Virus record (IMG/VR): IMGVR_UViG_3300017707_001960
Span: 1 to 39,099 of that record
Direction: 5' to 3' (one strand)
Origin: a virus
Lineage: Duplodnaviria; Caudoviricetes
DNA: 39,099 nucleotides
The notes below the pieces were generated by a model. That model saw nothing but the letters and a program-made list of their open reading frames with translations, was not told where the DNA came from and did no database searches. The translations under genes were made by a program, and so were the position numbers. This document shows positions 579 through 38,983 of the stretch, one piece after another; positions within the stretch are counted from its first letter, which is position 1; every line of letters begins with the position of its first letter.

Positions 579-640
579 TGAGAACCATGAGATGCAGCAC
601 AACGGGGCTAAGGCCCCGTTGCTGATCTCAAACGTTCTCC
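579..640 (+). other. attC site B4
   Basis: R'' TGAGAAC, CATGA, L'' GATGCAGC, hairpin AACGGGGC/GCCCCGTT, L' GCTGATC, TCAAAC, R' GTTCTCC; extra base in L''. Confidence 0.92.
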
Positions 641-879
641 GAAAGCTCGCACGCCACAGCGAGCACCATCACGCTTGCCATAGGCTGACCGTCCTTGCTG
701 GCTTTCTTCGCGATCTGGATGGCCGCGCTGAGGATTGAGGTGTTGCCCTCCTTGGCTACCCCTCGAATGATGGGGCTGATTTCGTTGATCTTCTGGGGCC
801 AGTTGTCCCCATGCAGTCGGCGCATAGTGTCGCGTGCATCGTAGAGCTTGGCAGTAGTGCGGATTAGTTTTTCGGTCAT
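628..879 (-). CDS. Hypothetical protein (cassette B5)
   Basis: ORF MTEKLIR...ELSENV fills the interval between attC B4 and B5; start could extend to 915. Confidence 0.7.
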   Translation of the reverse strand: MTEKLIRTTAKLYDARDTMRRLHGDNWPQKINEISPIIRGVAKEGNTSILSAAIQIAKKASKDGQPMASVMVLAVACELSENV

Positions 880-902: not shown

Positions 903-995
903 GGAGAACCATCACATGCAGGCAACGGCTCGTAGCTCATCTGTCATGTCCGCGGGCGTCCATCGCTCGCCGTCGCCTGATCCGGGACGTTCTCC
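903..995 (+). other. attC site B5
   Basis: R'' GGAGAAC, CATCA, L'' CATGCAGG ... L' CCTGATC, CGGGAC, R' GTTCTCC. Confidence 0.88.
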
Positions 996-1268: not shown

Positions 1269-1361
1269 GGAGAACCCGGCAGTGCTGGCAACGGCGGGGA
1301 GTTGCCTGTTTATGGTTTCGGAAGTGCAGCGCCCGCCGTCGCCAGACTTGAGGCGTTCGAC
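1269..1361 (+). other. attC site B6
   Basis: R'' GGAGAAC, CCGGC, L'' AGTGCTGG ... L' CCAGACT, TGAGGC, R' GTTCGAC. Confidence 0.9.
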
Positions 1362-1615: not shown

Positions 1616-1674
1616 GTCGAACAAGGCGGTGGACTCAACCGCGAGGACGCGGCGAGTCACCTTGTTCGTTCGAG
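1616..1674 (+). other. attC site B7 (59 bp)
   Basis: R'' GTCGAAC, AAGGC, L'' GGTGGACT, CCGCG/CGCGG stem, L' AGTCACC, TTGTTC, R' GTTCGAG. Confidence 0.92.
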
Positions 1675-7563: not shown

Positions 7564-7830
7564 ATGACCGCCTCCGAAATCCAACACCGTTTTACCAACA
7601 TCGTGGTCGAGCAGTTATGCTGTGATCCTGACGATGTGGTGGCTGATGCGACCCTGCGCGATTTGGGCGCGGATTCGCTCGATGAGATCGAAATCATCAT
7701 TTTCTGCGAGGAGGATTTTGAGATCAACATCCCGGATGACGATGCGGCCAAACTCAAAACCGTGCTCGATTGCGTGAACTATCTGCATGCCGAGCTGAAC
7801 CGCAATCCGCTGCTCATGCGCAACTCATAA
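7564..7830 (+). CDS. acpP: Acyl carrier protein
   Basis: IVVEQL...DLGADSLDEIEIII..EEDFEINIPDDDAAKLKTV with the phosphopantetheine Ser in DSL. Confidence 0.88.
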   Translation: MTASEIQHRFTNIVVEQLCCDPDDVVADATLRDLGADSLDEIEIIIFCEEDFEINIPDDDAAKLKTVLDCVNYLHAELNRNPLLMRNS

Positions 7831-7863
7831 CCCGTAACCCATAACTCAAAACACATACCCACC

Positions 7864-8274
7864 ATGCCCAACAAACTGAACGCCTACATCGACCCGCTCA
7901 AACTTCAGGGCGCGGTTTTGATGACTCTCAAAGACAAGACTGGAGCACCGACGGAGTGCCTGGTGATCCAGTTGAAAAACTCGCGGATTCGCCGGACAGA
8001 ACGATCTGGCAAGCTCGGGTTGTCCATCGACCTGGTGCCGAATCGCGATGGCAAGGACGAGTTTGGCAACACGCACTGGATCAAGGAGAGCACGACGAAG
8101 GCCGAACGCGAAAGCGCCACGCCGCCGAATCTGCCGTTTCTGGGCAATGCCCGCGAGTATGACGCGGCAACAGGCGGCCAGCGAACGGCACGGCCTGCGG
8201 GCGGTGTGCCGGTGACGGGCGGCGACTCCTCGCCGATGGCGGAGGGGATGGAGGACGATGACATACCGTTTTGA
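7864..8274 (+). CDS. SSB-like protein
   Basis: G/P-rich linker and acidic tail EDDDIPF; replication module context. Confidence 0.6.
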   Translation: MPNKLNAYIDPLKLQGAVLMTLKDKTGAPTECLVIQLKNSRIRRTERSGKLGLSIDLVPNRDGKDEFGNTHWIKESTTKAERESATPPNLPFLGNAREYDAATGGQRTARPAGGVPVTGGDSSPMAEGMEDDDIPF

Positions 8275-8360
8275 ACGTCTCGGATCAGTGACCGCGAACC
8301 CATGATCACGAATACACGACAGCCAGCCCAGAGCGGTTCACTTCATCCGATTTGTTCGGT
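8270..8360 (-). other. attC site A2
   Basis: Minus strand: R'' ACCGAAC, L'' GATGAAGT, GAACCGC/GCGGTC stem, L' ACTGATC, CGAGAC, R' GTTCAAA. Confidence 0.8.
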
Positions 8361-8595
8361 TTGTGGCGAGCCTGTGTGGGGCGGAACGAAGCGCCACCCA
8401 GCAACAAAGTGCTTGTTTCACTTTAGCTGCATTTGCGCGGAATGCGGTCATGAGGCGTTCTGGCTGACAACTAGGAAAAACCCAGAAGGCCGCTGGGTCT
8501 GCTTCTCGCTTCAATGCGGCTGGGTAAGCACTGAATACACCAAGCCATTTCATCAACCGAACGTCAAAACGCAGCAACCCCGAAACGAAGCCTAA
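8302..8595 (+). CDS. Cys-rich (Zn-finger-like) hypothetical protein (cassette A2)
   Basis: CSVC, CAEC and C..LQC motifs; starts in the attC A2 loop and ends in the attC A1 loop. Confidence 0.65.
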   Translation: MITNTRQPAQSGSLHPICSVCGEPVWGGTKRHPATKCLFHFSCICAECGHEAFWLTTRKNPEGRWVCFSLQCGWVSTEYTKPFHQPNVKTQQPRNEA

Positions 8596-8652
8596 GATAT
8601 GAGCCTGCCTGATGCCAACTCGAAGTCACAAGACCATCAACCCTTGTTCGGC
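8556..8652 (-). other. attC site A1 (degenerate L'' arm)
   Basis: Minus strand: R'' GCCGAAC and R' GTTCGGT with L' GCTGCGT; the L'' position (TTGATGGT) does not pair. Confidence 0.6.
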
Positions 8653-8862
8653 ACGGGGGATGAGATGGAGTTTCGCCGCCAGTTTGCCATTCAATTCTTG
8701 GCGAGCTATGCGGCTACTAACTTCAACGACTTATGCGCCAATGGACGCCAAGGCTCCCTTGAGCGGCTACCTGTCGAAGATGCTGAATATCTCAGCGGCA
8801 CAGCATGGCGTCACTGGTGCTACACGATGCCGATGAAGCCGAACAAGAATTATCCAGACTGA
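8599..8862 (+). CDS. Hypothetical protein (cassette A1)
   Basis: 87-aa ORF bounded by GTTCGGC (8646) and GCCGAAC (8838); ends inside attI-A. Confidence 0.7.
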   Translation: MSLPDANSKSQDHQPLFGTGDEMEFRRQFAIQFLASYAATNFNDLCANGRQGSLERLPVEDAEYLSGTAWRHWCYTMPMKPNKNYPD

Positions 8863-8910
8863 CTTTTCCTCTCAACACCTGCAAAACCGGAAACATTCTA
8901 AAACTTATGA
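8838..8910 (-). other. attI-like site A plus intI leader
   Basis: Minus-strand GTCTGGATAATTCTT-GTTCGGC just upstream of intI, non-palindromic; its core matches R'' of the first cassette. Confidence 0.82.
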
Positions 8911-9911
8911 ACCTGCGTGATACACTGGAACAAGTTCGGCTGACGTGCCGCATGCGGCGGTTGTCGAGGCACACGGAGGAGTCTTATGCGGGGTGGATCG
9001 TGCGGTTTGCCAGGCATGTGGCACGCAGGGTGGAAGAGTCACGGGAGGAACGGGTGCGGAGTTTTCTGGAGCAGATGGCCCCGCGTTGCTCGGCATCGAC
9101 GCAAAACCAGGCTTTCAATGCCATCGTGTTCTTTTACCGCGATGTGCTGCGTCAGCCGTTGGGTGATCTGGGGAAATGGACCCGTGCGAAACGGCCGGCA
9201 CGGCTGCCGTCGTGGCTGAGTCCTGATGAGATGCGGCGTTTGTTTGATGCGATGACACCGGGGCCGCTACTCATGGCGCAGGTGGCGTATGGCAGCGGCG
9301 TGCGACTGGCGGAACTGCTGGCGCTGCGGGTGAAGGACATCGACCTGGATGCGTGCCTCATCACGGTGCGCGGCGGCAAGGGTGACAAGGACCGCGTGAC
9401 ATGCCTGCCTCGCTCGCTGGTGTTCACGCTGCGGGCGCATTTGGACCGCATTCGGCTGCTGTATGATGCCGACCGTCAGGCGGGCGCGATGCCGGTGTAT
9501 CTGCCGGACCAACTGGAGCGCAAATATCCGAACGCTGGCCGCGAGTGGCCGTGGTTCTGGCTGTGGCCTGCGGCAAATCAAAGCACCGATCCACGCAGCG
9601 GCATCGTGCGCAGGCATCACATTCATGAGGACACGCTGGGCAAGGCGCTGAAGAATGCCCGCCGTCGCTGCGGACTGAGCAAACGAGTGACGGCGCACAC
9701 GCTGCGTCATAGCTTTGCCACGAACTTGCTGGCGAACGGAGCCAGCATCACGCAGGTGCAGGAATTGCTCGGGCACAGCAGCGTGGAAACGACGCAGATT
9801 TACACGCACTGCATTCCGCAGTTTGCCCGCAGCATCACGAGTCCGATGGACACGCTGCCGCAACCTGCCAACGTGGTGCCGTTTGAAACGCACACAAGGA
9901 GGGCGGCGTGA
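8907..9911 (+). CDS. intI: Integron integrase (IntI family tyrosine recombinase)
   Basis: N-terminal LSRHTEESY..W, ASTQNQAFNAIVFFYR; catalytic R, K (GKGDKDR), HTLRH, LGH, TQIY; IntI-specific insertion VYLPDQLERKYPNAGREWPWFWLWP...DPRSGIVRRHH. Confidence 0.95.
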   Translation: MNLRDTLEQVRLTCRMRRLSRHTEESYAGWIVRFARHVARRVEESREERVRSFLEQMAPRCSASTQNQAFNAIVFFYRDVLRQPLGDLGKWTRAKRPARLPSWLSPDEMRRLFDAMTPGPLLMAQVAYGSGVRLAELLALRVKDIDLDACLITVRGGKGDKDRVTCLPRSLVFTLRAHLDRIRLLYDADRQAGAMPVYLPDQLERKYPNAGREWPWFWLWPAANQSTDPRSGIVRRHHIHEDTLGKALKNARRRCGLSKRVTAHTLRHSFATNLLANGASITQVQELLGHSSVETTQIYTHCIPQFARSITSPMDTLPQPANVVPFETHTRRAA

Positions 9912-14035: not shown

Positions 14036-16315
14036 ATGTCCGTCCCTGCTGAACTCCCCTCCGTCATCGACCCGGAGAAGCCGCTTGCGGACTGGAAGGT
14101 GACAGATGCGCTGGACGAAATGGAGGCCGCCTGCCGCGATGCGAGCGGATTCCTCAAGCAGATGGCGACCAATGAGCAGACGCGCAAATGCTGGTGGCAG
14201 AACAAGACCGGCACGGGCAAGAAGGCCAACACGAAAACCGCCGACGCCAAGCCTTTCAACGGCGCGGCCGATCATGAGGTGCATCTGACGCAGGCCGTGA
14301 TGAACCGCCGCAACGCGGCCCGCATCGCGGCGCTGATGGCCGGCAATCTCAACGTGACGCCGATGGAGAGCACGGACGCGAAGCGGGCCGGACTCATGCG
14401 CCAGGTGCTCCGCTACTACCTGAACGGCCCCATGCGGACGGAGTTTGTCACCCAAGGACTGCGGGCGGGCAGCTATGCCGACCGTTTCCGCGCCGGGGTG
14501 ATGTATGTGGGATGGAAGGAAGAGCGCGGCGTCGAGCCGATCCAACTCACGCGGGCTATGGTGGCGGAGATGCTGCAAATGCAGTTTGCCGCCGAGGCGC
14601 AGGACATGACGCTGATCGAGGGCATCGACTTCGAGGCGCTGGTGCTGGACGAAAGCCGCGAGGCTGAAATAATCGCACTGGTGCTGCGGAATCTGCCCGG
14701 TGCCGCCGAGCGCCGGAAGATTGGCGAAGCCTCCGTGAAACGGGCGCTGGCCCGCCTGCGAGCCGGGGATGACACCGCCGTGGTGCATGCCGCCTATGTG
14801 AAGCGTTCAAGTCCCTGCTGGGAAGCATTGCAGCCGTTTGTCGATGTCTTTTTCCCCTACGAGACGCTGATGGAAGATAATCTGGAAAGCTGCCGCTGGA
14901 TCGCCCGCGTGCGGTGGCGTTCCGCGCAGTGGATCAAGGAGCAGGCCGCTTTGCATGGCTGGGACAAGGCATGGGTGAAGGAGGTGCTGGAGAAGCACAA
15001 GGGGCGCAGCAATCTCTTCAGCAACAGCATGGCGTCCTACCCGTGGGCGCTCAGCGGTGCCGGGGTGAACTGGAGCGCCCGCACGAATGGCGAGGCGCAA
15101 AATCATTTGTATCAAATCATCGAGCTGTGGGATCGCGCTGTCACGGTGGACGGCCTGACGGGAACGTATCACACCATCCTGCATGCGGATGTGAAGGACA
15201 AGGTGGCGAAGCGCCAGCTCCGCATGGACTGGGATGGCTGTTATCCGTTCGTGCCGTTCACCTTCAGCCAGGACGAGCGATTGATTCTCGACGGCTTCAG
15301 TGTGCCGGAGATCACCATGACGAAGGAGCAGGCGGTGAAGGCGCAGTGGGACAGCCGCACGGATGCCGCCAGCCTGACCACCTTTCCCACCTGGACCGGC
15401 GACCCGGAGCTGGAGGGCTTGCGGCCCGCGCCCGGCGTCTTCCTGCCGTCCATCCGTGGCAAGGTGCCGCAAGCCTTGCAGATCCCGCCGCCTGACGGGC
15501 GCAGCATCGAGATTGAGCGCACGCTGCGGGAGAGCATCAACGAGTTTTTTGGCTTCCCCAGCCGCACGCTGCCGGACAGCGTGGCGATGATGATGGGCCA
15601 GGCTGATCTGGACTGGTTCATGCTCGCCATCTCGCAGTGCATCGCCCGCACGGCCAAGCTGATCCAGCAATACATGCCGCCGTTGCAAGGTGCCCGCATC
15701 ACCGGCACGAACGAACTCGTGACCGCCACCGCCAACGACGTGCGCGGCGGCTTTGACTTCCAGGCGAAGTTCAACGTGAAGAGTCTCGACGTGGAGTGGA
15801 CGAGCAAGCATCTGGGCTTCATCAAGGATATGATCGTGCCGCTGGACAATCGCGGCCAGATCAACACGCTGCCCATTCTGGAAGCGGGCTTCAACATGCT
15901 CGACCCGGGACTTGCGGCGCAATGTCTGCCGAAGGATGCCGACACGGCGCAGCGCCAGACGCTCGACATGGCCCGCATGCACCTGGCTGAAATCTTCACC
16001 GGAGGAGCGCCGGACGTGACCGAGGGCATGGACTTTGGCGGGCTGGCGCAAGCCGTGACAGATGAGATCACCCGCAGCCCGCTGCGGCAGCAGAGCATCA
16101 TCGGCGGCCAGCAGATCCATGTCGTGCTGACCAGCTACCTCGCGGGACTGGTGAACAACCAGAAGCAGCACGGCGGGGAAAATGCCCGCATCGGCCGCAC
16201 GCTCACGGACGACCCGCTGGCGCAACCGAGCGCGGCGGAAGGCTTGCTGCAAACGCTGCAAGGACTGCCGGAGGGCGTGAGTCTGGCGCAAGTGATGGGG
16301 GGAGTGAGTTCTTAG
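14036..16315 (+). CDS. Portal protein
   Basis: 759 aa, between terL and scaffold/capsid; YPFVPF and related podovirus-portal-like segments. Confidence 0.75.
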   Translation: MSVPAELPSVIDPEKPLADWKVTDALDEMEAACRDASGFLKQMATNEQTRKCWWQNKTGTGKKANTKTADAKPFNGAADHEVHLTQAVMNRRNAARIAALMAGNLNVTPMESTDAKRAGLMRQVLRYYLNGPMRTEFVTQGLRAGSYADRFRAGVMYVGWKEERGVEPIQLTRAMVAEMLQMQFAAEAQDMTLIEGIDFEALVLDESREAEIIALVLRNLPGAAERRKIGEASVKRALARLRAGDDTAVVHAAYVKRSSPCWEALQPFVDVFFPYETLMEDNLESCRWIARVRWRSAQWIKEQAALHGWDKAWVKEVLEKHKGRSNLFSNSMASYPWALSGAGVNWSARTNGEAQNHLYQIIELWDRAVTVDGLTGTYHTILHADVKDKVAKRQLRMDWDGCYPFVPFTFSQDERLILDGFSVPEITMTKEQAVKAQWDSRTDAASLTTFPTWTGDPELEGLRPAPGVFLPSIRGKVPQALQIPPPDGRSIEIERTLRESINEFFGFPSRTLPDSVAMMMGQADLDWFMLAISQCIARTAKLIQQYMPPLQGARITGTNELVTATANDVRGGFDFQAKFNVKSLDVEWTSKHLGFIKDMIVPLDNRGQINTLPILEAGFNMLDPGLAAQCLPKDADTAQRQTLDMARMHLAEIFTGGAPDVTEGMDFGGLAQAVTDEITRSPLRQQSIIGGQQIHVVLTSYLAGLVNNQKQHGGENARIGRTLTDDPLAQPSAAEGLLQTLQGLPEGVSLAQVMGGVSS

Positions 16316-16361
16316 TTATGGGTTATTGGTTAAGGGTTATTGGTTAGGACTTATTTGTTTT

Positions 16362-24285: not shown

Positions 24286-24852
24286 ATGAACATCTTCCTC
24301 GATCCCGGACATGGTATGTCCAACCGCAAGCCCGGCATTTACGATCCCGGCGCCACGGTGCGCGTGGGCAAGGAGGACATCACCGAGGCTGGCATTGTCA
24401 TGACCTGGGCGAATGAACTCCGCGCCCTGCTCATGGCGCAGGGCCACACGGTCATACGCAGTCGCAAAGACATGCTCGATCCCTCTCCGCTCGGCGACCG
24501 CGTGGAGGACGCGCATCATTTCAAATGCGACGTGCTCGTGAGCCTGCACTGCAACGCGGCGAATGGCAAGGCGAACGGCACCGAGACGTTCTTTCGGGGC
24601 GAGCGCAACCGCACGCTGGCGCAGCGGTGCAATGATGCCGTGGTAAACGCACTGGGCACGCGCAACCGTGGCGTCAAGACCGAAAGCGCCAGCCAGCATG
24701 CCCGCCTCGCCGTGCTGGACTTCCCCCGCGCCGTGCTCATCGAGCTGGGCTTCATCGACCACCCCGGCGACCGCGCCCTGCTGCTCGATCCCAAGAAGAT
24801 GCTGCAAGCCTGTGACGCGCTCTGCGATGCCATCACCGGCACCACCTCTTAA
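24286..24852 (+). CDS. N-acetylmuramoyl-L-alanine amidase (Amidase_3) endolysin
   Basis: IFLDPGHG, E, VSLHCNA, GTETF, AVLIELGFID. Confidence 0.92.
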   Translation: MNIFLDPGHGMSNRKPGIYDPGATVRVGKEDITEAGIVMTWANELRALLMAQGHTVIRSRKDMLDPSPLGDRVEDAHHFKCDVLVSLHCNAANGKANGTETFFRGERNRTLAQRCNDAVVNALGTRNRGVKTESASQHARLAVLDFPRAVLIELGFIDHPGDRALLLDPKKMLQACDALCDAITGTTS

Positions 24853-24889
24853 CTCATCACCTCTAACTCCTAACTTCTAACCCATCCCC

Positions 24890-25960
24890 ATGCCCCGCGA
24901 CCCGCGAGAAACCACCCCCTTTGAAACTGTGGCGACCGTCAAGCCGGGCGAAGTCGCCGCTTTGCTGTGGGTGCCGGAGAATCAGATCCGCGGGGATTTC
25001 TCGCTCACGGTGGGCACGACGCTGCAAGCGGCGCTGCCGCTGGTGTCGAAGGGTGACGGCTTGGGCCGAGGCTTTGAAAACTACGTCTTCACCGACAACG
25101 GCCCCGTCGATGCGGGATGGCATGGGTTCTACTTTGCGCGACCGTTCAGCAGCGGGGAGAAGACGACGGCCTTCCGCACGGTGACGGAGATTCGGGGCGG
25201 CATCTACTGGCCGCCCGTCATGGCCGGGCTAAACGTGCGCAACTTCAAAGCCTACGACGCGGACGGGGTGGAATACACGGCAGATGTGATTTGGGACTTC
25301 AACCTGCGGGACGCCTACGACGGCCCCACCAAAGTGGTGATCGAATACTTCGCCAGCCATGAGCCGCACACCATTGCCACGCCGACGACGATGCAGCCGG
25401 AAGGCGGCACGTTCTTTTATGGCGTGGGGCAGGTGAGCATCCCTCGCTGCCTGCATCCTTCGCTGGAACTCATTTACAGCACCGGCAGCGCCAGCACGCG
25501 CTACCCGTTGCAGACGTTTGTGAAGGCATTCCCGAATACCAATCTGACAAGCTGGCCGGCCACGCTGGTGATTGACGACGGGGAGAAATTCGACAACGGC
25601 CTTTACATCCGGCGCAAGGTCACGGCGTATCGTCCTGGCGACTACGCCACCGCGCCGATCATCTCGACGCCGACGAAGGCCAGCATCGGCAGCACGACGG
25701 TGACGCTGGGCGGCAATGCCAGCAACGACGGCGGCAGCACGATCACCGAGCGCGGCGTGGTGGTGAGCGCCACCGCGACGAATGCCGATCCCGTCATTGG
25801 CGGCACCGGCGTGACGAAAACCACCACCACCGGCACCACAGGTGTGTTCACCGTGGCCGTCACCGGACTCACCAGCGCCACCGGCTACACGTTCAAAGCC
25901 TATGCGACCAACGCACGCGGCACCAGCTACACCGCACTCGACACCTTCACCACCAGCTAA
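24890..25960 (+). CDS. Virion protein with C-terminal fibronectin type III-like domain
   Basis: GGNASNDGGSTITERGVV...TGLTSATGYTFKAYATNARGTSY. Confidence 0.7.
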   Translation: MPRDPRETTPFETVATVKPGEVAALLWVPENQIRGDFSLTVGTTLQAALPLVSKGDGLGRGFENYVFTDNGPVDAGWHGFYFARPFSSGEKTTAFRTVTEIRGGIYWPPVMAGLNVRNFKAYDADGVEYTADVIWDFNLRDAYDGPTKVVIEYFASHEPHTIATPTTMQPEGGTFFYGVGQVSIPRCLHPSLELIYSTGSASTRYPLQTFVKAFPNTNLTSWPATLVIDDGEKFDNGLYIRRKVTAYRPGDYATAPIISTPTKASIGSTTVTLGGNASNDGGSTITERGVVVSATATNADPVIGGTGVTKTTTTGTTGVFTVAVTGLTSATGYTFKAYATNARGTSYTALDTFTTS

Positions 25961-26012
25961 CGCATAACTCTTAACTCATCACCCCTAACTCCTAACCCCT
26001 AACCCATCACCC

Positions 26013-27995: not shown

Positions 27996-30900
27996 ATGCC
28001 ACGCTACGAACTCACCTCCGCCCACACGGGCAAGACCTACGTCATCGAAGGCGAGGGCCAGCCGACCGACGACGACATGATCGACATCGGCCGGCAGCTC
28101 GATGAGCAGACGGCGCGGCAGGCGGGGATTGATCCCGCGCTGCTTCAGCAGACACCTGCGGGCACGGTGGCAAACACGGTGCGGAACATCGGGCCGGAGT
28201 TTGTCGATATGGCCGTGGGCGGACTGGCGAAGCTGAACGAGACGCTGGGCCGCTCCCCGCTGGGCATCGTCTCCCCGCTGGCGCTGGCAAACCGGGCCAC
28301 GGAAATGGTGACGGGCATCAACCCGCTGGCACGCACCGCCGAGGCCACGCAGGTGATCCGCGAAACGGGCGAGGACATGCGCCCCGTGAACCCGTTCAAC
28401 CCGACTGCCCGGACCATCGGCAGCGCGATCAATCAAGTCGGCGGCATGGTGGCGACGGGCGGACTTGCTACCGCCGCAGGCATGGCCCCGGCCACCGCGA
28501 TGACAGCCATCCCTGGCGGCATCGGCTTCGCCGCAGGCGCAGGCCAGGGCATCGACACCGCCCGTCAAATGGGCATCACCGACCCGACCGCGCAGGCGGG
28601 CATGGGCATGGCCTTTGGCGGTGTGGAGATGGCGACCGAGCGACTGGGCGGTATCGGCGGCGACGTCGTGAACCGTTTCATCCGGCCGCAATCCCTGCTG
28701 GGCCGTGCCGCGCTGAATGTGGCGAGCGAATCCGTAGAAGAAAATGTGGCGGGCCGTGCGCAGGATGCAGTCACGGTAGGGGCAGGTCAATTCGTGTCGG
28801 ACCCCAACCGCCCCGGCTTCACCCGCAGCGGCTTCGAGTTGCCGAGCCTGAACCCGCTGAATCCGCAGACCCTTGAGCGCATGAAGCAGGAGGCCATCGG
28901 CGGCGCTGCTGGCGGCGTCGTGTTCAGCGGACTGCAAGCCCTTTCCCCTTCTGCCAGCGTAACCAAGGAATCCGGTCCGACTGCCGATCAAACCGTGCAG
29001 CAAGCCGCCGGTGCGGGTTTGAGTCCCGCCGCTGGCTCCCCTTCCCCTTCCCCGCTCGGCGGCATCGCCCGCAGGGCCGGAACGGTGGATGTGGCGCCGC
29101 TGGTGCCGGGGCTGGAGGAGGACACGGGGGCGCTGACGATGGCGGAGGTGGCGGGGCTGGAGCCAGTTTCAAGTTCCACGTTTCAAGTTTCAAGTCCGGA
29201 GACCGGCAGCCAGCGGCAGGCGATTTTGACGAATGTGCCGGACGCGGTGACGCAGCCGGACAACGGACCCGCGCAAACCATCACTGGCTCCAATGTGCAA
29301 ACGGGCACTGAAATGCCAGTGCCGCCCCCGACTGCGGACGCAGGTGCCGGGGCGGGCGCAACCGTGCCGGGTGCGCAGGGGGTAGGACAAGCAATGTCCG
29401 ACACCGCGCCCGACTCGCAGCTTGACGGACTGCGCACGCAGGAGGTGCCGGTGGGCAGTCTGCGTTTGTCCAAGGACGTGCCGCAGTTCAAGAGCGACGC
29501 GGACGAGGAAACCGGTGTGGTGGAACCGCTGGCGGGCAAGTATCAACGGCTCGGCACGGGGCCGATCCTTGTCTGGGAACGGCTGGACGGCCGCCGCGAG
29601 GTCATTAGCGGGCGGCATCGTTTTGATCTTGCCAAACGCACCGGAGAGCAGACAATCCCGGCGCAGGTCGTGCGCGAGGCGGACGGCTTCACCGTTCAAA
29701 TGGCGGTGACGGCGGACGCAGAACTTAACATTCGAGACGGTCATGGAAAAACCAAGGACTTTGCCAACTACTTCCGCGCCAGCGGCACCACGGACACCGA
29801 AGCAGAAAGCCGAGGCTTACTCGCACGCGCTGCGGGCAAGGCTGGGTGGAGCATCGGCACTCAGGGAAGCCAGGAACTCTTTGATCTACACCAGAACGGC
29901 CGGCTGACGGATGCGCAGGCCGCTGCGGTGGCCCGCACGGCTCCCGGCAACGAGGCGCTGCAACGCGCTGGCATCGCCGCGCTGAACCGTGGCACGCCCA
30001 TTGATGTCACGGTCAATCTGATGCGGGCGCTGGAGCTGCAAACCGGCCCGGCTCCGACCGCCGACCAGCTCGACCTCTTTGGCGCGGATGATTCGATGAT
30101 GCTGCGCATGGAGGAGCAGGCGAAGAAGGCGACCGAGATCCAGCGCGGACTGAAGGAGCAGGTGGCCGCCGTGCAAGGCGCGGCCAAACGCCCGGAGCAG
30201 GCCCGCAAGCTGGGCGTGAATGTGAAAGACCCGGACGGCGTGCGCAAGCGGGTGGAAGAACTCAAGGCGCTGCTCTACCGCTGGGAATCCTGGCCGCTGC
30301 ATGCGGACCTGCGAGCGCAAGTCACAGGCGAAACGCAGGCGCCTGCGATGCAACTGGAAAGCGTGAGCGCGGAACAACTGGCCGAGGAGCAACGCCAGCG
30401 CGAGCAACGCGCCCGACTCGATGCCGGCCAGGCCGCGCCCCTCACCGGCACCGCAGGCGAATACGGCACGCCTGACATGCTCGACAATACGGCTGGAGAC
30501 ATGGCGCTGTTCAATCAATCGCCGACTCTTCTCCTTCCCGCTCGGAACTTCACGGGCGGGCTGGCGCAGCAGCTCGAAGGGAGCGCGGCCACTCTTGGCC
30601 GCAATGCAGCGCGAAGCACCAGGAACCCAGAACCCATCACCCCTAACTCTTCACTTTCGTCTGCCTACGCCCAAGCCTCACGCGGCAGCAGCAGCGCGAT
30701 GGTGCCGATCTCCCGCGTCTATGAGCAGGTGAAGGCGCAGAACCCGGCGCTGACGGTGCCGCAGTTTCTGGCCGAGGTGCAGGCGGCGGACCAGCGCGGC
30801 GAGGTGCTGCTGGAGCCGTTCGATTCCCCGCAGGGCTTGCAAGCGGCGGGCGAGTTCACCGTGCGCAATGCCAGCGGGGTGCCGTCGATCAACATGGCGG

Positions 30901-35269: not shown

Positions 35270-35491
35270 AAGCTGAAACCTTTTTGGACTTTGGAGATGC
35301 AAGCGAGGCTGGATGGCCTGCGGGCATGGAATCTATGGGCGGCGCAAGGCGGGCTGCGGGGCAAGCCGTCGCGGCTGGCTTTGCGGGCCAGGGAGATCGC
35401 GGAGGCGCGGAGGGCGCTGGCGGAGGTGTATGCGGCGCTGGACCGGGTGTTTCCGCTGGGTTTGACTTGGGTGAAGGAGGGTGCAGTATGA
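35267..35491 (+). CDS. Small hypothetical protein
   Basis: ATGA overlap with the integrase gene. Confidence 0.4.
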   Translation: MKLKPFWTLEMQARLDGLRAWNLWAAQGGLRGKPSRLALRAREIAEARRALAEVYAALDRVFPLGLTWVKEGAV

Positions 35492-36648
35492 GTGCGCTGA
35501 AGCGCAAGATCGCGGGGGTGAAGGTGCGGTTTTACAAGCGCACGGCGGGATCAAATCTGAGCATGGATTTTGAGATCGACGGGGAGCGGTTTCAGGAATC
35601 GACGGGCTGGCCGCACATCGCGGACGCGGAGCGGGTGGCGTTGGATCGCATCAACAAGATCAACGAGGCTCGGCGTGCGTTTGGAGCGGGGGCACTGGTG
35701 CGTGGATCTATGGCGACGGTGGGCGAGGTGTGCGAGGCGCTGCGTGTAGGCGACAAGGTGATGGATGAGAAGACGCTGACGCGATACATGGCGGCGCTGG
35801 TGTGTCTGGCGCGGGTGGTGGATGAGGCGCGGCCTCTCGATGTGACGCTGGACAAGGTGATTGATCGCGTGACGCTGGAGCGGTATGTGAGTCTGGCGCA
35901 GGGCAATCAGGGGCGCGGCGTGAACTGGCACGATCAACTGCCGATGAACGGCGCGATCAATTCGACGCTGCGGAATGCGGCGAGTTTGTTCCAAGAGAGG
36001 CTGGTGGGAAGGCACTTGAGCGCGCTGCGGCTGCCGCCGCTGGAGCCGCTGCGGAAGTTCACGGCGCTGCCGACTCTGCCGACTCATTTTATCCCGTGGC
36101 CGACTGAGAATGTGACGGCGATGGACGCGGCAGCGCGGGCGCTGAAGACGGAGCAGCCGGAGCTGTGGCTGTGCCATGTGATGCTGCGCAGGCTGGGGCT
36201 GCGTGATGCGGAGCTGCTGGGCGCGCGGGCGGCCTGGGTGCAGTGGGGGCAGGATGGCAAGGCGTGGTTGGATCTGCGCACACGCACGGCGGAGGGTGGC
36301 GAGCCTGCTTTCCGACTGCTGAAGGGTGGCAAGCCGCGCCGTCTGGCGCTGGATGCGGAGATTCAAGAGGCTTTGCGGGGGCGCCCGGGCTGGCTGATCG
36401 GTGACGGCTGGGGCGAGTCAAAACGCTACGATTTTGTGTATCGTGAGCATTGCGACTGGTTGCGGCCGTTTGTGCCGGAGGGGCGCATGAAGGTGAATCA
36501 CGAGCTGCGGAAGCTGGCGGCGAGCCGGGTTTACACGCAGCACGGGATCGCCGCGGCGGCGTATTTCCTGGGCGACTCGGTGACGACGACGGAGCGCTAT
36601 TATGCGGCTTGGACGGCGGAGGCTCCGGTGGTGGCGTGGGAGGTGTGA
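35488..36648 (+). CDS. int: Phage tyrosine integrase
   Basis: N-terminal arm-binding-like domain, LGLRDAEL, HELRK, YFLGDS..TTERYY; next to attP. Confidence 0.82.
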   Translation: MSALKRKIAGVKVRFYKRTAGSNLSMDFEIDGERFQESTGWPHIADAERVALDRINKINEARRAFGAGALVRGSMATVGEVCEALRVGDKVMDEKTLTRYMAALVCLARVVDEARPLDVTLDKVIDRVTLERYVSLAQGNQGRGVNWHDQLPMNGAINSTLRNAASLFQERLVGRHLSALRLPPLEPLRKFTALPTLPTHFIPWPTENVTAMDAAARALKTEQPELWLCHVMLRRLGLRDAELLGARAAWVQWGQDGKAWLDLRTRTAEGGEPAFRLLKGGKPRRLALDAEIQEALRGRPGWLIGDGWGESKRYDFVYREHCDWLRPFVPEGRMKVNHELRKLAASRVYTQHGIAAAAYFLGDSVTTTERYYAAWTAEAPVVAWEV

Positions 36649-36676: not shown

Positions 36677-37234
36677 TTAGTTCTTGGTCGCACTAGCAAG
36701 GCCGGGCACGAGTTCGGCCTCGATGACGGTGGCGCTTTGCTGTTCCAAGGCGGCGCGGCGTTCGGCGGCGGCTTTGCGGGCGGCTTCGAGTCGGTCTTGA
36801 GCGGAGACGGTGACGACGGCTTTAATTTCCGTGGGCATGCCGTGCAGGCTGCGCTCGATGTCGTGGGCCATTTTGGTGCTCATGGACACGGCCATGAGGT
36901 CGGACTTTTTCGCGTCGGGTATCAACTCGACCATCTTTTCCGTGCCTTGGAGGACGGCGAGCTGCGCATTTTTGGCGGCGAGTTCGGCGAGTTGTTCAAC
37001 GGTGAACTCGGTTCGCATGAGGGCGGCGATGGTTTGCCGGGACTTTCCCACGCCTAGCTTGCCGAGTTCGCGTTCGAGTGCGGAGATGTTGGTGATGCCG
37101 TGCTCGCGGATCATCTCGACGCAAATGGCGTAGCTTTCGGGATCGCTGCTTTTCCAATTCTTCGCCGTGTGCTCGCGCCACAAGTCGATGGGATGCGGAG
37201 GCAGATCGGCGAGGGGAAGCGGCGGGGTGGTCAT
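36677..37234 (-). CDS. HTH/helical protein, terminase small subunit-like
   Basis: HTH-like NISALERELG...SRQTIAAL, helical core, G.PTEI motif, C-terminal VIEAELV; assignment is inference. Confidence 0.45.
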   Translation of the reverse strand: MTTPPLPLADLPPHPIDLWREHTAKNWKSSDPESYAICVEMIREHGITNISALERELGKLGVGKSRQTIAALMRTEFTVEQLAELAAKNAQLAVLQGTEKMVELIPDAKKSDLMAVSMSTKMAHDIERSLHGMPTEIKAVVTVSAQDRLEAARKAAAERRAALEQQSATVIEAELVPGLASATKN

Positions 37235-37302
37235 AGGTTTTAGAATGTTTCCGGTTTTGCGGGTGCTACCCAGAAATATTGTCTGGATAGTTCTTGTTAG
37301 CT
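37231..37302 (+). other. attI-like site B (second copy of attI plus intI leader)
   Basis: Reverse complement matches 8838-8910 in two blocks; core GTTAGCT at 37296 matches R'' at 37521. Confidence 0.82.
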
Positions 37303-37589
37303 GACTTCCAAAGGCGCGCCCACATCGACGGGCGGCGGAGTTTCTGGTTCTCAAATTCTAGTCGGTCGGCGCGGGCTTTTTCAGCGCGATACCATACACA
37401 CAGCCATGTGCGCCAACGGTTAATTGTGTATTGACTGCTCTGCCATTTATTAATCCGCCGTTCAAGCTTCTGACAGCGACGATTCAGGCGTCGGTTCGTC
37501 TCGCGGGCGATAGCCAAGTCAGCTAACAAGGCGCTGGACTCCGACAGAATGGGCTTCTGTGTCGTATCGATGGGGTGATTCTGTTCCAT
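37266..37589 (-). CDS. Hypothetical coiled-coil protein (cassette B1)
   Basis: Starts in the attC B1 loop and ends in attI-B (ANKNYPD). Confidence 0.7.
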   Translation of the reverse strand: MEQNHPIDTTQKPILSESSALLADLAIARETNRRLNRRCQKLERRINKWQSSQYTINRWRTWLCVWYRAEKARADRLEFENQKLRRPSMWARLWKSANKNYPDNISG

Positions 37590-37650
37590 ATTCTATTGTT
37601 CCATGGCAGGTTTCCGCCGCCCATTCTGCGGGTCAGCTTGATCGTTCGTC
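37521..37650 (+). other. attC site B1 (130 bp)
   Basis: R'' AGCTAAC, AAGGC, L'' GCTGGACT, CAGAATGGGC/GCCCATTCTG stem, L' GGTCAGC, TTGATC, R' GTTCGTC. Confidence 0.88.
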
Positions 37651-37847
37651 CCCTGAGTGCGTCGCTTGGCCTTCGCGAGCCTCGCAAGCGCCCCTTCCTG
37701 CGTTAGGACGTGCGGAAGCGTGCCTTTCTCCCACTGCCACACGGCACGCGGGGAAACGTCCAGGAATGCGGCAAGCTCGGCCTGTGTCAGGCCGAGCCGC
37801 TCGCGTTGGTCTTTGAGTTGTTCAGGGAAGCTCACAGGATTTTGCAT
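37593..37847 (-). CDS. XRE-family HTH protein (cassette B2)
   Basis: LKDQRERLGLTQAELAAFLDVSPRAVWQWEKG. Confidence 0.88.
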   Translation of the reverse strand: MQNPVSFPEQLKDQRERLGLTQAELAAFLDVSPRAVWQWEKGTLPHVLTQEGALARLAKAKRRTQGTNDQADPQNGRRKPAMEQ

Positions 37848-38014
37848 CCGATTTCGTTTCCGGTGACGAAGCTTGAGACGTATTCCACGTCTCCGTCTTC
37901 CGTCGTGACCTCATAGGAGGTTCCTACTTTGTCGCTGATTTGGCCGAGGACCGAGCGGCCCATTCCAAAGTTGATCTTGACTGCGGTGCCGTTTTTGATG
38001 TCGAGTGTTTTCAT
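37832..38014 (-). CDS. Small beta-rich hypothetical protein upstream of HTH (cassette B2)
   Basis: 60-aa ORF overlapping the HTH start; preceded by a promoter/operator region. Confidence 0.7.
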   Translation of the reverse strand: MKTLDIKNGTAVKINFGMGRSVLGQISDKVGTSYEVTTEDGDVEYVSSFVTGNEIGCKIL

Positions 38015-38039
38015 GGTGTGTTCGGTTTGGTTACGTTTC

Positions 38040-38093
38040 TAGTTTCGCACATTATGCGAACAGAACAAGTAATATTTTCGCATATTGTGCGAT
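38040..38093 (-). promoter_or_regulatory. Promoter with twin palindromic operators (cassette B2)
   Basis: TTCGCACATTATGCGAA (38044-38060) and TTCGCATATTGTGCGAT (38077-38093); same 33-bp offset as in B4. Confidence 0.7.
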
Positions 38094-38315
38094 TTATTTC
38101 TCAGAGCACTCTGAGCATAGAGGAGCATTCCCGAACGCCCCGCCTCGGCTGTCCATGCCGTCGCGGCGCATCCAGTTTGATGCTGGTAGGAACTTCCCGC
38201 AGCCGATACCAGAGCCAACCATGCCCGTCGTGCTCATACCGCACTGCGTAAGCCATTCGTGACGGGGACGAACCATGCGCTGCTGACCAACTGGCGGGGC
38301 GGATGAGTCTTTCAT
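38094..38315 (-). CDS. Possible Cys-containing small protein (cassette B2)
   Basis: ATG in the attC B2 loop overlaps the upstream stop (ATGA); CG..GCGKF..CSEC. Confidence 0.4.
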   Translation of the reverse strand: MKDSSAPPVGQQRMVRPRHEWLTQCGMSTTGMVGSGIGCGKFLPASNWMRRDGMDSRGGAFGNAPLCSECSEK

Positions 38316-38366
38316 GGTGGCGATGCTGGTAGCGCCCCGCCAGTGGCAGAGCTTGAAGCGTTCTCC
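38267..38366 (+). other. attC site B2
   Basis: R'' GACGAAC, CATGC, L'' GCTGCTGA, ACTGGCGGGGCG/CGCCCCGCCAGT stem, L' GCAGAGC, R' GTTCTCC. Confidence 0.88.
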
Positions 38367-38551
38367 CCCTTGCGGGAGCGCTTCGGACTGCGGAGTGCAA
38401 GAAGCTCTAGCGCCATCGCTGCCTCTTGCGTGATAGTGCCGCCTTGCTCGCGCTGGTTGATTGCTTTGCGGCTTACTCCCAGCGCAACGGCCAGAGCGGC
38501 CTGGGTCATCCCCAGCCGCTCCCGTGTGGCTTTGTATTCGTCGGAGGTCAT
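38312..38551 (-). CDS. XRE-family HTH protein (cassette B3)
   Basis: MTSDEYKATRERLGMTQAALAVALGVSRKAINQREQG. Confidence 0.85.
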   Translation of the reverse strand: MTSDEYKATRERLGMTQAALAVALGVSRKAINQREQGGTITQEAAMALELLALRSPKRSRKGENASSSATGGALPASPP

Positions 38552-38799
38552 GCTACTGCTTTTTCCCATCCGCGAAAGTTGCCGGACTCAAACTCATTGA
38601 TCATGTAAAGCTTCGTTCCGTTGCCGCGAGTCGCTACGATTTCGCGCTTGATCTTGTTTTCCTTCATCACCCGAGCGGTGTTTTCACGACCGCGAGCGGC
38701 GACTTGCTCTGGAGTGAAGGATTGCAGGACATTGAATGTGAGACCGTTGATTTCGATCTTTTCGATTGCGATGTGAGGGGCGATTGATGTTGTGTTCAT
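38548..38799 (-). CDS. Small hypothetical protein upstream of HTH (cassette B3)
   Basis: 83-aa ORF with ATGA overlap to the HTH gene. Confidence 0.72.
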   Translation of the reverse strand: MNTTSIAPHIAIEKIEINGLTFNVLQSFTPEQVAARGRENTARVMKENKIKREIVATRGNGTKLYMINEFESGNFRGWEKAVA

Positions 38800-38807
38800 G
38801 GTGAGAG

Positions 38808-38859
38808 ATAGTAACCCAAGGTTACAGCCAGTCAAACGCTAAATGTAACTTTTCGTAAC
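38808..38859 (-). promoter_or_regulatory. Sigma70-like promoter with twin operators (cassette B3)
   Basis: Minus strand TTGACT-N16-TACTAT; GTAACCCAAGGTTAC (38811-38825) in the spacer and GTAACTTTTCGTAAC (38845-38859). Confidence 0.7.
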
Positions 38860-38884
38860 TTTATTCAACGTCTGGCAGAACGGG

Positions 38885-38983
38885 GGAGAACAAGCCCACT
38901 GGAGCTAACCTGATGGGCGAGGTTGCACCATCGGCTAGCCACGCTTTGCCCGCCCATCAGGTAGCTCACTGGAGATGTTCTCA
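38885..38983 (+). other. attC site B3
   Basis: R'' GGAGAAC, L'' ACTGGAGC, ACCTGATGGGCG/CGCCCATCAGGT stem, L' GCTCACT, GGAGAT, R' GTTCTCA. Confidence 0.85.

Follow-up and report, generated by a model that had tools for sequence, protein, structure and literature searches.

The 39,099-nucleotide stretch of viral DNA analysed here (the window) is a circular phage genome, with a 123-nt terminal repeat at the two window ends, and it probably bears an integron whose mirror-image cassettes are locked in frame, a gene taking its tail and stop codon from the neighbour and the next start codon often lying in the same recombination site. The mirror design is widespread, and in this phage it is found together with an integrase, attI-like sites and a reading-frame rule. 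Judged from sequence comparison, the placement of the genes and the frame lock likely keep genes intact after reshuffling; the closeness of stop and start codons is most readily explained by the compact packing usual in phage operons, accommodated where the site is under least constraint, and not by a dedicated signal.

Genes for DnaB, a terminase-like protein and an endolysin are present in the window, and the three sequencing runs with the greatest share of this sequence were all freshwater metagenomes, any one of which may be where it came from. The element comprises one integron integrase, two attI-like sites and nine attC-type junctions in two arrays. The integrase gene (intI, 8907–9911, plus strand) encodes a full-length IntI of 334 aa (TIGR02249, 355.1 bits, cut-off 265), the IntI-family tyrosine recombinase that marks a complete integron. 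Array B (sites B7 to B1, minus strand) spans the origin and terminates in an attI-like site at 37298, and array A (A2 and A1, plus strand) terminates in an attI-like site ahead of intI. The latter site (attI1, 8842–8909, plus strand) has its AAC at 8842 and an in-frame TGA at 8860; the former (attI2, 37232–37298, minus strand) has its AAC at 37298 and an in-frame stop at 37268, and it precedes a gene starting at 37234. A 35-nt stretch is common to both and 94% alike, and the boundary of attI2 is complementary to the GTT side of B1. In the window and in most of the relatives listed, the AAC junction of the attI-like site complements the end of the last cassette, and an Asn-frame stop also lies inside the site. 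As intI is situated approximately 7 kb from B7 and adjoins array A, the element falls outside the definition of a CALIN (an attC cluster without a nearby integrase).

The attI2 of array B is fused straight to a 185-aa gene (site and gene together, 36677–37298, minus strand), with no integrase next to it there. A 75%-identical relative of this gene sits after an intact intI in two phage loci (L030 and L182), and in the relatives with a 96% identical IntI a 32% homologue directly follows intI, a position from which it is missing in the window; among the relatives examined (L030, L182, L184 and L185), L185 carries a gene of this type after a seemingly internally deleted intI. Array B may have come in from elsewhere as a module and have lost its integrase, and the position of the 185-aa gene before the terminase-like gene in relatives suggests that it may encode a small terminase subunit. 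A second tyrosine-recombinase-like gene, highly divergent and with a weak match to phrog_216 (35284–36648, plus strand), is convergent with array B. Low-complexity repeats of short TAAC-containing units lie in the intergenic space before several genes (7822–7860, 24844–24889, 25952–26011 and 30624–30654), with an inverted copy at 16295–16338, and in L182 a similar tandem heptamer precedes a start codon. Four intergenic copies of a GC-rich 38-nt repeat are present (13361, 13741, 19355 and 24247), which may represent a small hairpin element. A small acidic ORF (7564–7830, plus strand), flanked by dnaB on one side and on the other by the gene that precedes array A, resembles by eye an acyl carrier protein and is skipped by some of the run contigs.

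Orientation was determined with a purpose-written, orientation-aware attC scanner, which at a score of at least 15 gave 97 hits in 557 kb (every fourth locus) versus 6 in shuffled sequence. After de-duplication, 212 viral and 52 bacterial sites were obtained, the former from a set of viral loci that had been cleared of 14 duplicates and the latter from 80 bacterial loci. Enough flank was available for 206 viral sites and for 45 bacterial sites from mixed phyla, which served as the control; seven of the viral sites came from the window (A1 and A2 scored below the threshold), and the viral set contains a few chromosomal-looking arrays (L090 and L093) that dilute the signal. All parts are given in window positions, and 'coding strand' refers to the bottom strand of attC. 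At seven of the eight folding sites the extra bases lay in the 3′ arm as read on the coding strand, B3 being ambiguous; by the rules given in PMC5027507, this identifies the coding strand as the bottom strand, the one that recombines. The best coding frame lay on this strand at 177 of 207 viral sites. The attC top strand was opposite to intI at 186 of 187 upstream sites in viruses and at 51 of 51 in bacteria, and likewise in array A, which separates the element from reverse integrons, in which by definition intI is turned round with respect to that strand. On the bacterial sites the same scanner returned classical top-strand genes that end in the TAA of R′′. With a classical intI geometry, and with bacteria appearing classical to the same scanner, it is the genes that are inverted and not the integrase: the cassette genes face attI, as the mirror image of classical cassettes, and the attI-like site is located at their 3′ end. 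The classical gene cassette, with a top-strand gene that ends at or before R′′ and is expressed from a Pc near attI, is not the arrangement seen in the window. An initial annotation of this DNA had followed the coding strand without recognising it as the attC bottom strand, and had missed the inversion. Long phage arrays of up to 10 sites (L009, L023, L024 and L025) were also encountered, some with long open top-strand frames, suggesting uptake of classical cassettes into mirror arrays.

The frame lock became apparent when frames open for at least 50 codons before the AAC were counted by phase: 144/67/24 on the bottom strand of the 206 viral sites, 74/65/71 on the viral top strand and 6/7/10 in the 45 bacterial sites. 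The AAC was read as an Asn codon by 129 of the 139 viral read-through genes, 121 of which stop inside the site (best frame per site); at the rest of the 206 sites, 32 genes stop in the R box and 35 sites lack a long incoming frame. In the window, all eight read-through genes were in the Asn phase, the genes at A2 and B3 stopped at or before the box and B7, with an ambiguous upstream frame, was outside the count; a stop in the Asn frame was no more than 18 codons away at any of the 11 junctions. The inverted genes thus have their crossover in an Asn codon and receive tail and stop from the neighbour. Because the sites share descent, counts were repeated with one site per cluster and with 33 held-out sites (30 with flank) that had been located by arm motifs.

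In the picture that emerges, a bottom-strand gene crosses the AAC as an Asn codon, the neighbouring site gives it a tail and a stop, and the next gene often starts inside the same site, an arrangement by which ribosomes would be handed on after a reshuffle. Any cassette would then be likely to end cleanly in any neighbour, which would select for the common phase. The swaps would be carried out by the IntI of this phage, transcription from promoters of the phage or of cassettes would traverse the array in the direction of attI, and a ribosome ending the upstream gene would open the 5′ arm of the mRNA hairpin and re-initiate at a nearby ATG.

Eight of the nine sites were detected and fold as DNA (z from −1.5 to −7.7), and seven of the eight form stable RNA hairpins at −26 to −54 kcal/mol; A1 does not fold (z +0.85). 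The initial annotation had described stop/start signals in five attC loops, and all five motifs were confirmed (B1, 37595/37589; B2, 38315–38312; B3, 38937/38931; B5, 946/940; A1, 8593/8599), with the reservation that A1, cited among the loops, has no hairpin. As for their proposed role as gene junctions, those of B1, B2 and A1 do join two real genes, and their ATGs open frames with 7, 3 and 110 homologues besides the proteins themselves, in agreement with the idea that cassette proteins start in the loop; those of B3 and B5 do not join two real genes. At B1 (37525–37646, minus strand), the in-frame TAG at 37595 closes an HTH gene (37593–37847, minus strand) that reads the AAC as Asn, and the ATG at 37589 opens a 107-aa cassette gene (37266–37589, minus strand) that terminates in attI2. 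Origin of the B1 motif by local tandem duplication was considered and dropped, as the L194 homologue retains the motif without the first copy. At B2 (38271–38362, minus strand), an HTH gene that reads the AAC as Asn (38312–38551, minus strand) overlaps at ATGA with a 73-aa ORF (38094–38315, minus strand) beginning in the loop; one homologue of the latter (76% identity) has a different N-terminal head. The orientation of B3 (38889–38979, minus strand) was scored the opposite way by the scanner and was assigned by hand from homology. Its stop and ATG are both outside real genes: the TAG at 38937 is in the AAC frame but unused, the incoming HTH gene having already stopped at 38983–38981, ahead of the site, and the ATG at 38931 opens 8 codons.

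The short site B4 (583–636, minus strand) has a stop two codons past the AAC and no loop start. At B5 (907–991, minus strand), the TGA at 946 is the genuine end of the upstream gene, and the ATG at 940 is off-frame, opening a 110-codon frame distinct from the conserved cassette ORF downstream (628–879, minus strand, with its start at 879 or 912), the homologues of which differ in their tails past the Asn. Since only 2 of 14 homologues of this conserved protein have an in-frame loop-type head, the B5 head appears unstable in frame. A further ATG at 947, within an ATGA, opens an 11-codon frame that terminates on the ATG at 912, and similar chains were seen in some sites of the B5 family. B6 (1273–1357, minus strand) has an in-frame TAA in the loop and, like the outermost array B site, B7 (1620–1670, minus strand), no loop ATG. 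In array A, the loop ATG of A2 (8274–8356, plus strand) at 8302 opens a 97-aa ORF 10 nt past the in-frame stop. The A1 junction (8560–8648, plus strand) has matching cassette boundary boxes, the TAA at 8593 and the ATG at 8599, and from its lack of a hairpin we infer that it is a decayed or chimeric attC; an 87-aa ORF (8599–8862, plus strand; 110 relatives at E≤0.001) begins in it and terminates in attI1. Pattern scans with the B3 arm returned no viral contigs, and those with the A1 arm returned the phage's own record and three unrelated matches.

Cassette proteins other than those of the three HTH genes had no NCBIfam or PHROG family match. An AT-rich stretch resembling a promoter is found in each of three cassettes (5–560, 38312–38860 and 37593–38100, all minus strand), together with a small ORF and an overlapping HTH gene. 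The HTH genes have weak antitoxin/repressor matches, and two of the promoter-like stretches are 77% alike; the cassettes resemble two-gene regulatory or toxin–antitoxin-like modules.

Coupling was defined as a gene-opening ATG within −4 to +8 of the Asn-frame stop. It was found at 75 of the 206 viral sites (100 loop shuffles: mean 22.6, maximum 30), at none of the 45 bacterial sites and at 3 of 188 on the viral top strand, and the excess was repeated in the held-out sites (18 of 30, null 3.9) and in the cluster representatives (80 of 187, null 23.5). The enrichment over shuffled loops and the phage-versus-bacterial difference anticipated in the initial annotation were therefore both observed for coupling in general, whereas the stop-N3-ATG form that it had singled out is rare (5 of 206) and ATGA is the common form (40 of 206). 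Within the window, stop-N3-ATG was present in four of nine loops (0.33 in dinucleotide shuffles, p=0.0005) and either stop-N3-ATG or ATGA in six of nine (null 3.3, p=0.0045), both p values being post hoc for motifs picked by eye. Ordinary gene junctions were collected from 74 de-duplicated viral loci with a simple codon-score gene caller, the crudeness of which makes this baseline approximate; among 674 junctions, 273 were tight, 167 were ATGA and 12 were stop-N3-ATG. No difference between attC sites and these junctions was detected (tight, p=0.33, Fisher; ATGA, p=0.13; stop-N3-ATG, p=0.57), and the attC sites with genes on both sides (62 of 131 coupled) did not differ either (p=0.15). Stop-N3-ATG was accordingly rejected as a specific signal. 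The coupling rate being that of ordinary phage junctions, what is special is the placement and the frame lock and not the coupling signal; of the suggestion that attC is a portable junction that couples translation, the portability holds (Asn-codon crossover and swapped tails) and the coupling does not rise above the ordinary.

This baseline also makes it doubtful that the loops have been selected for stop and start codons so that ribosomes melt the hairpin, beyond ordinary packing. Loop ATGs are in excess (56 of 206 sites versus 7.4 in shuffles), and another phage, L194, keeps the B1 stop/start at its homologous site with a different sequence ahead of it; the spacer varies, however, and one contig variant has an extra base at 8593. 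The short ORFs within classical attC sites (PMC8876359, in the part cited) offer a precedent, but mini-ORF relays are not enriched here (5 of 206 versus 5.7 in shuffles; held-out sites, 3 versus 1.8) and were rejected as a general design; direct gene-to-gene junctions dominate, in place of short leader ORFs of the ORF-11 type relaying across the site. Loop starts are A-rich with few SD-like motifs (14 of 76), a composition that, together with the stable RNA hairpins, fits re-initiation, yet about half of the sites have no coupled start: no ATG is near the stop at 96 of 206 sites, and 76 gene starts lie in the loop versus 72 only after the GTT. A ribosome would not reach the loop where the Asn-frame stop is in the 5′ arm (72 of 212 sites) or where the tail has two codons (32 of 121).

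The preferred reading of a frame-locked, portable cassette was examined further by comparison of loci. The GTT side of a site complemented the AAC side of the next site in 132 of 166 viral pairs and its own AAC side in 18. Eight pairs of loci with a common cassette end diverge 1–5 bases past the AAC, seven of them with the Asn frame open in both members; one pair consists of the 944–1246 cassette of this phage (minus strand) and its counterpart in L009, which has another tail. All 15 hits of the 628–912 protein (one being the protein itself) carry different tails, and 13 of these start with N. In sequence comparison, cassettes thus behave as units that move with their crossover in the AAC. Heads were exchanged as well, although no head swap was found in any pair among the fetched loci: exchanges were seen in protein homologues, in L194 and in run contigs, with the joins mapping at the GTT where DNA was seen. 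The B1 gene bears three different heads, one of which is that of A1 (P0005, and also contigs of runs X1–X3), and the B1 head fronts an unrelated 306-aa ORF in L194 (near 1501) with the same stop/start motif retained. A strict rule that a start travels with its gene is contradicted over longer times, N-terminal heads not being fixed to genes; the GTT joins could stem from top-strand recombination or from cassette birth. In runs X1–X3 an element that combines the A1 head with the B1 gene body beside the A2 cassette co-occurs (depths 87, 33 and 11); this element (window 8344–8642 and 37296–37528) has one base added at 8593.

Cassette birth might also account for the phase bias itself, if phage genes had been captured at an in-frame AAC and the phase inherited in attC families, with no ongoing selection for portability. 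Homologues of the B1 gene outside cassettes have native ends and the cassette forms have replaced heads and tails, and attC arms do group into families; this explanation is nevertheless unlikely, as the bias persisted with one site per cluster (127/61/22 in 187) and an AAC could be captured in any phase. The outgoing phase at the GTT was free (77/60/67), as it should be if the constraint acts on the exchanged end alone.

Still less probable is that the arrays are frozen relics, built once by recombination, with codons left over that have no present role. Decay is visible in A1, which no longer folds, in the unused B3 and off-frame B5 motifs and in the attI-like site of array B, which no integrase follows; yet relatives with a 96% identical IntI possess different arrays, IntI is full length, and differences concentrate at third codon positions (5 of the 6 listed strain differences for the 107-aa B1 gene; 3/2/25 by codon position for the 944–1246 ORF). 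Run contigs moreover leave the window sequence at or near the AAC of B4, B5, B7 and A1 (636, 995, 1671 and 8563). A clean excision joint mapping to two crossovers was absent from all contigs of four runs, which would agree with relics but is not evidence of absence because contigs drop rare forms; a joint from 8642 to 8344 was dropped as an excision candidate and is accounted for by the same cassettes in a different arrangement.

That the orientation was miscalled, and that ordinary cassettes lie beside an inverted integrase, is very improbable, for, near-palindromic as the sites are, home-made as the detector is and although B3 scored the other way, the same detector yields the classical layout in bacteria, the swaps map to the AAC of the coding strand, the bottom strand and thus the one that recombines (PMC5027507), and the attI-like site is at the 3′ end of the genes.

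The integron of this phage and classical integrons have in common the IntI family and folded attC sites with extra bases near L′′, and next to the 5′ end of intI this phage has a putative attI in the position of the classical one. The general view is that an integron cassette functions only if its gene is on the top strand and faces away from the attI promoter. In reverse integrons, intI is flipped and the cassettes are classical; intI is on the same strand as the cassette genes both there and here, but here the intI–attI–attC geometry is classical and the genes are flipped. Crossover in the AAC of the bottom strand and complementary cassette ends are likewise shared with classical integrons (PMC5027507, in the part cited). 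Unlike them, this phage has bottom-strand genes facing attI and the crossover inside coding sequence, the stop usually being the neighbour's and the start often lying in the site of the cassette itself. Promoter-facing cassettes were treated by Nivina et al. (2016), in the passages cited, as unexpressed and absent from sequenced integrons (PMC5027507). Arrays of attC in phage genomes were reported by Qi et al. (2023), who found five of six tested phage attC sites to recombine with IntI1 and complete phage integrons to resemble captured bacterial ones (PMC9892861, in the part cited). The attC arrays of those phage integrons and CALINs correspond to the present ones; gene inversion, frame lock and loop starts are not described in the main text, in which the terms 'start codon' and 'opposite' do not occur. 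No description of the mirror layout was found in the literature searched, which covered few subscription papers, and the supplements of PMC9892861 (ORF and attC positions) may show it implicitly.

Passage of ribosomes through the hairpin is an idea already in print for classical attC sites (PMC8876359, section 3.2): for short ORFs in classical attC and for ORF-11 of attI1 (Jacquier et al., as reviewed there), translation across the site relieves the hairpin and promotes re-initiation. The stop of ORF-11 is provided by the adjacent cassette, a feature found again in the phage cassettes; in the classical attC and attI described in that section, a short leader peptide is encoded on the top strand, whereas in this phage full genes end and begin in the site on the bottom strand. 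The synthetic attC sites of Nivina et al. (2020) are translated in frame within a protein, as here; as presented in the cited part of PMC7439510 they are engineered and placed mid-protein, whereas the phage sites are natural, at gene ends and in a fixed phase.

The frame rule makes specific predictions, and the mirror design is a natural counterpart of in-frame attC sites that otherwise had to be engineered. What this window contributes is an integrase accompanied by two attI-like sites, evidence of swaps involving its own cassettes and the control with ordinary junctions; the coupling signal alone would matter less, tight junctions being normal in phages. Placed in bacterial integrons, mirror cassettes would not be expressed from Pc, which suggests a separate phage gene pool. 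It is conceivable, if no more than a tentative extension, that phages run their own cassette pool with a fixed grammar, in which an Asn codon serves as the crossover, attC provides a portable stop-plus-start module required for translation through the mRNA hairpin that it forms, reshuffling rewrites C-termini, and exchange at the other box replaces N-termini, existing phage genes becoming cassettes by way of attC-encoded heads and tails. Homologues with native and with attC-encoded ends bear on how cassettes arise, and if the reading of heads and tails as fitted to phage genes is true, a route of cassette birth would be visible.
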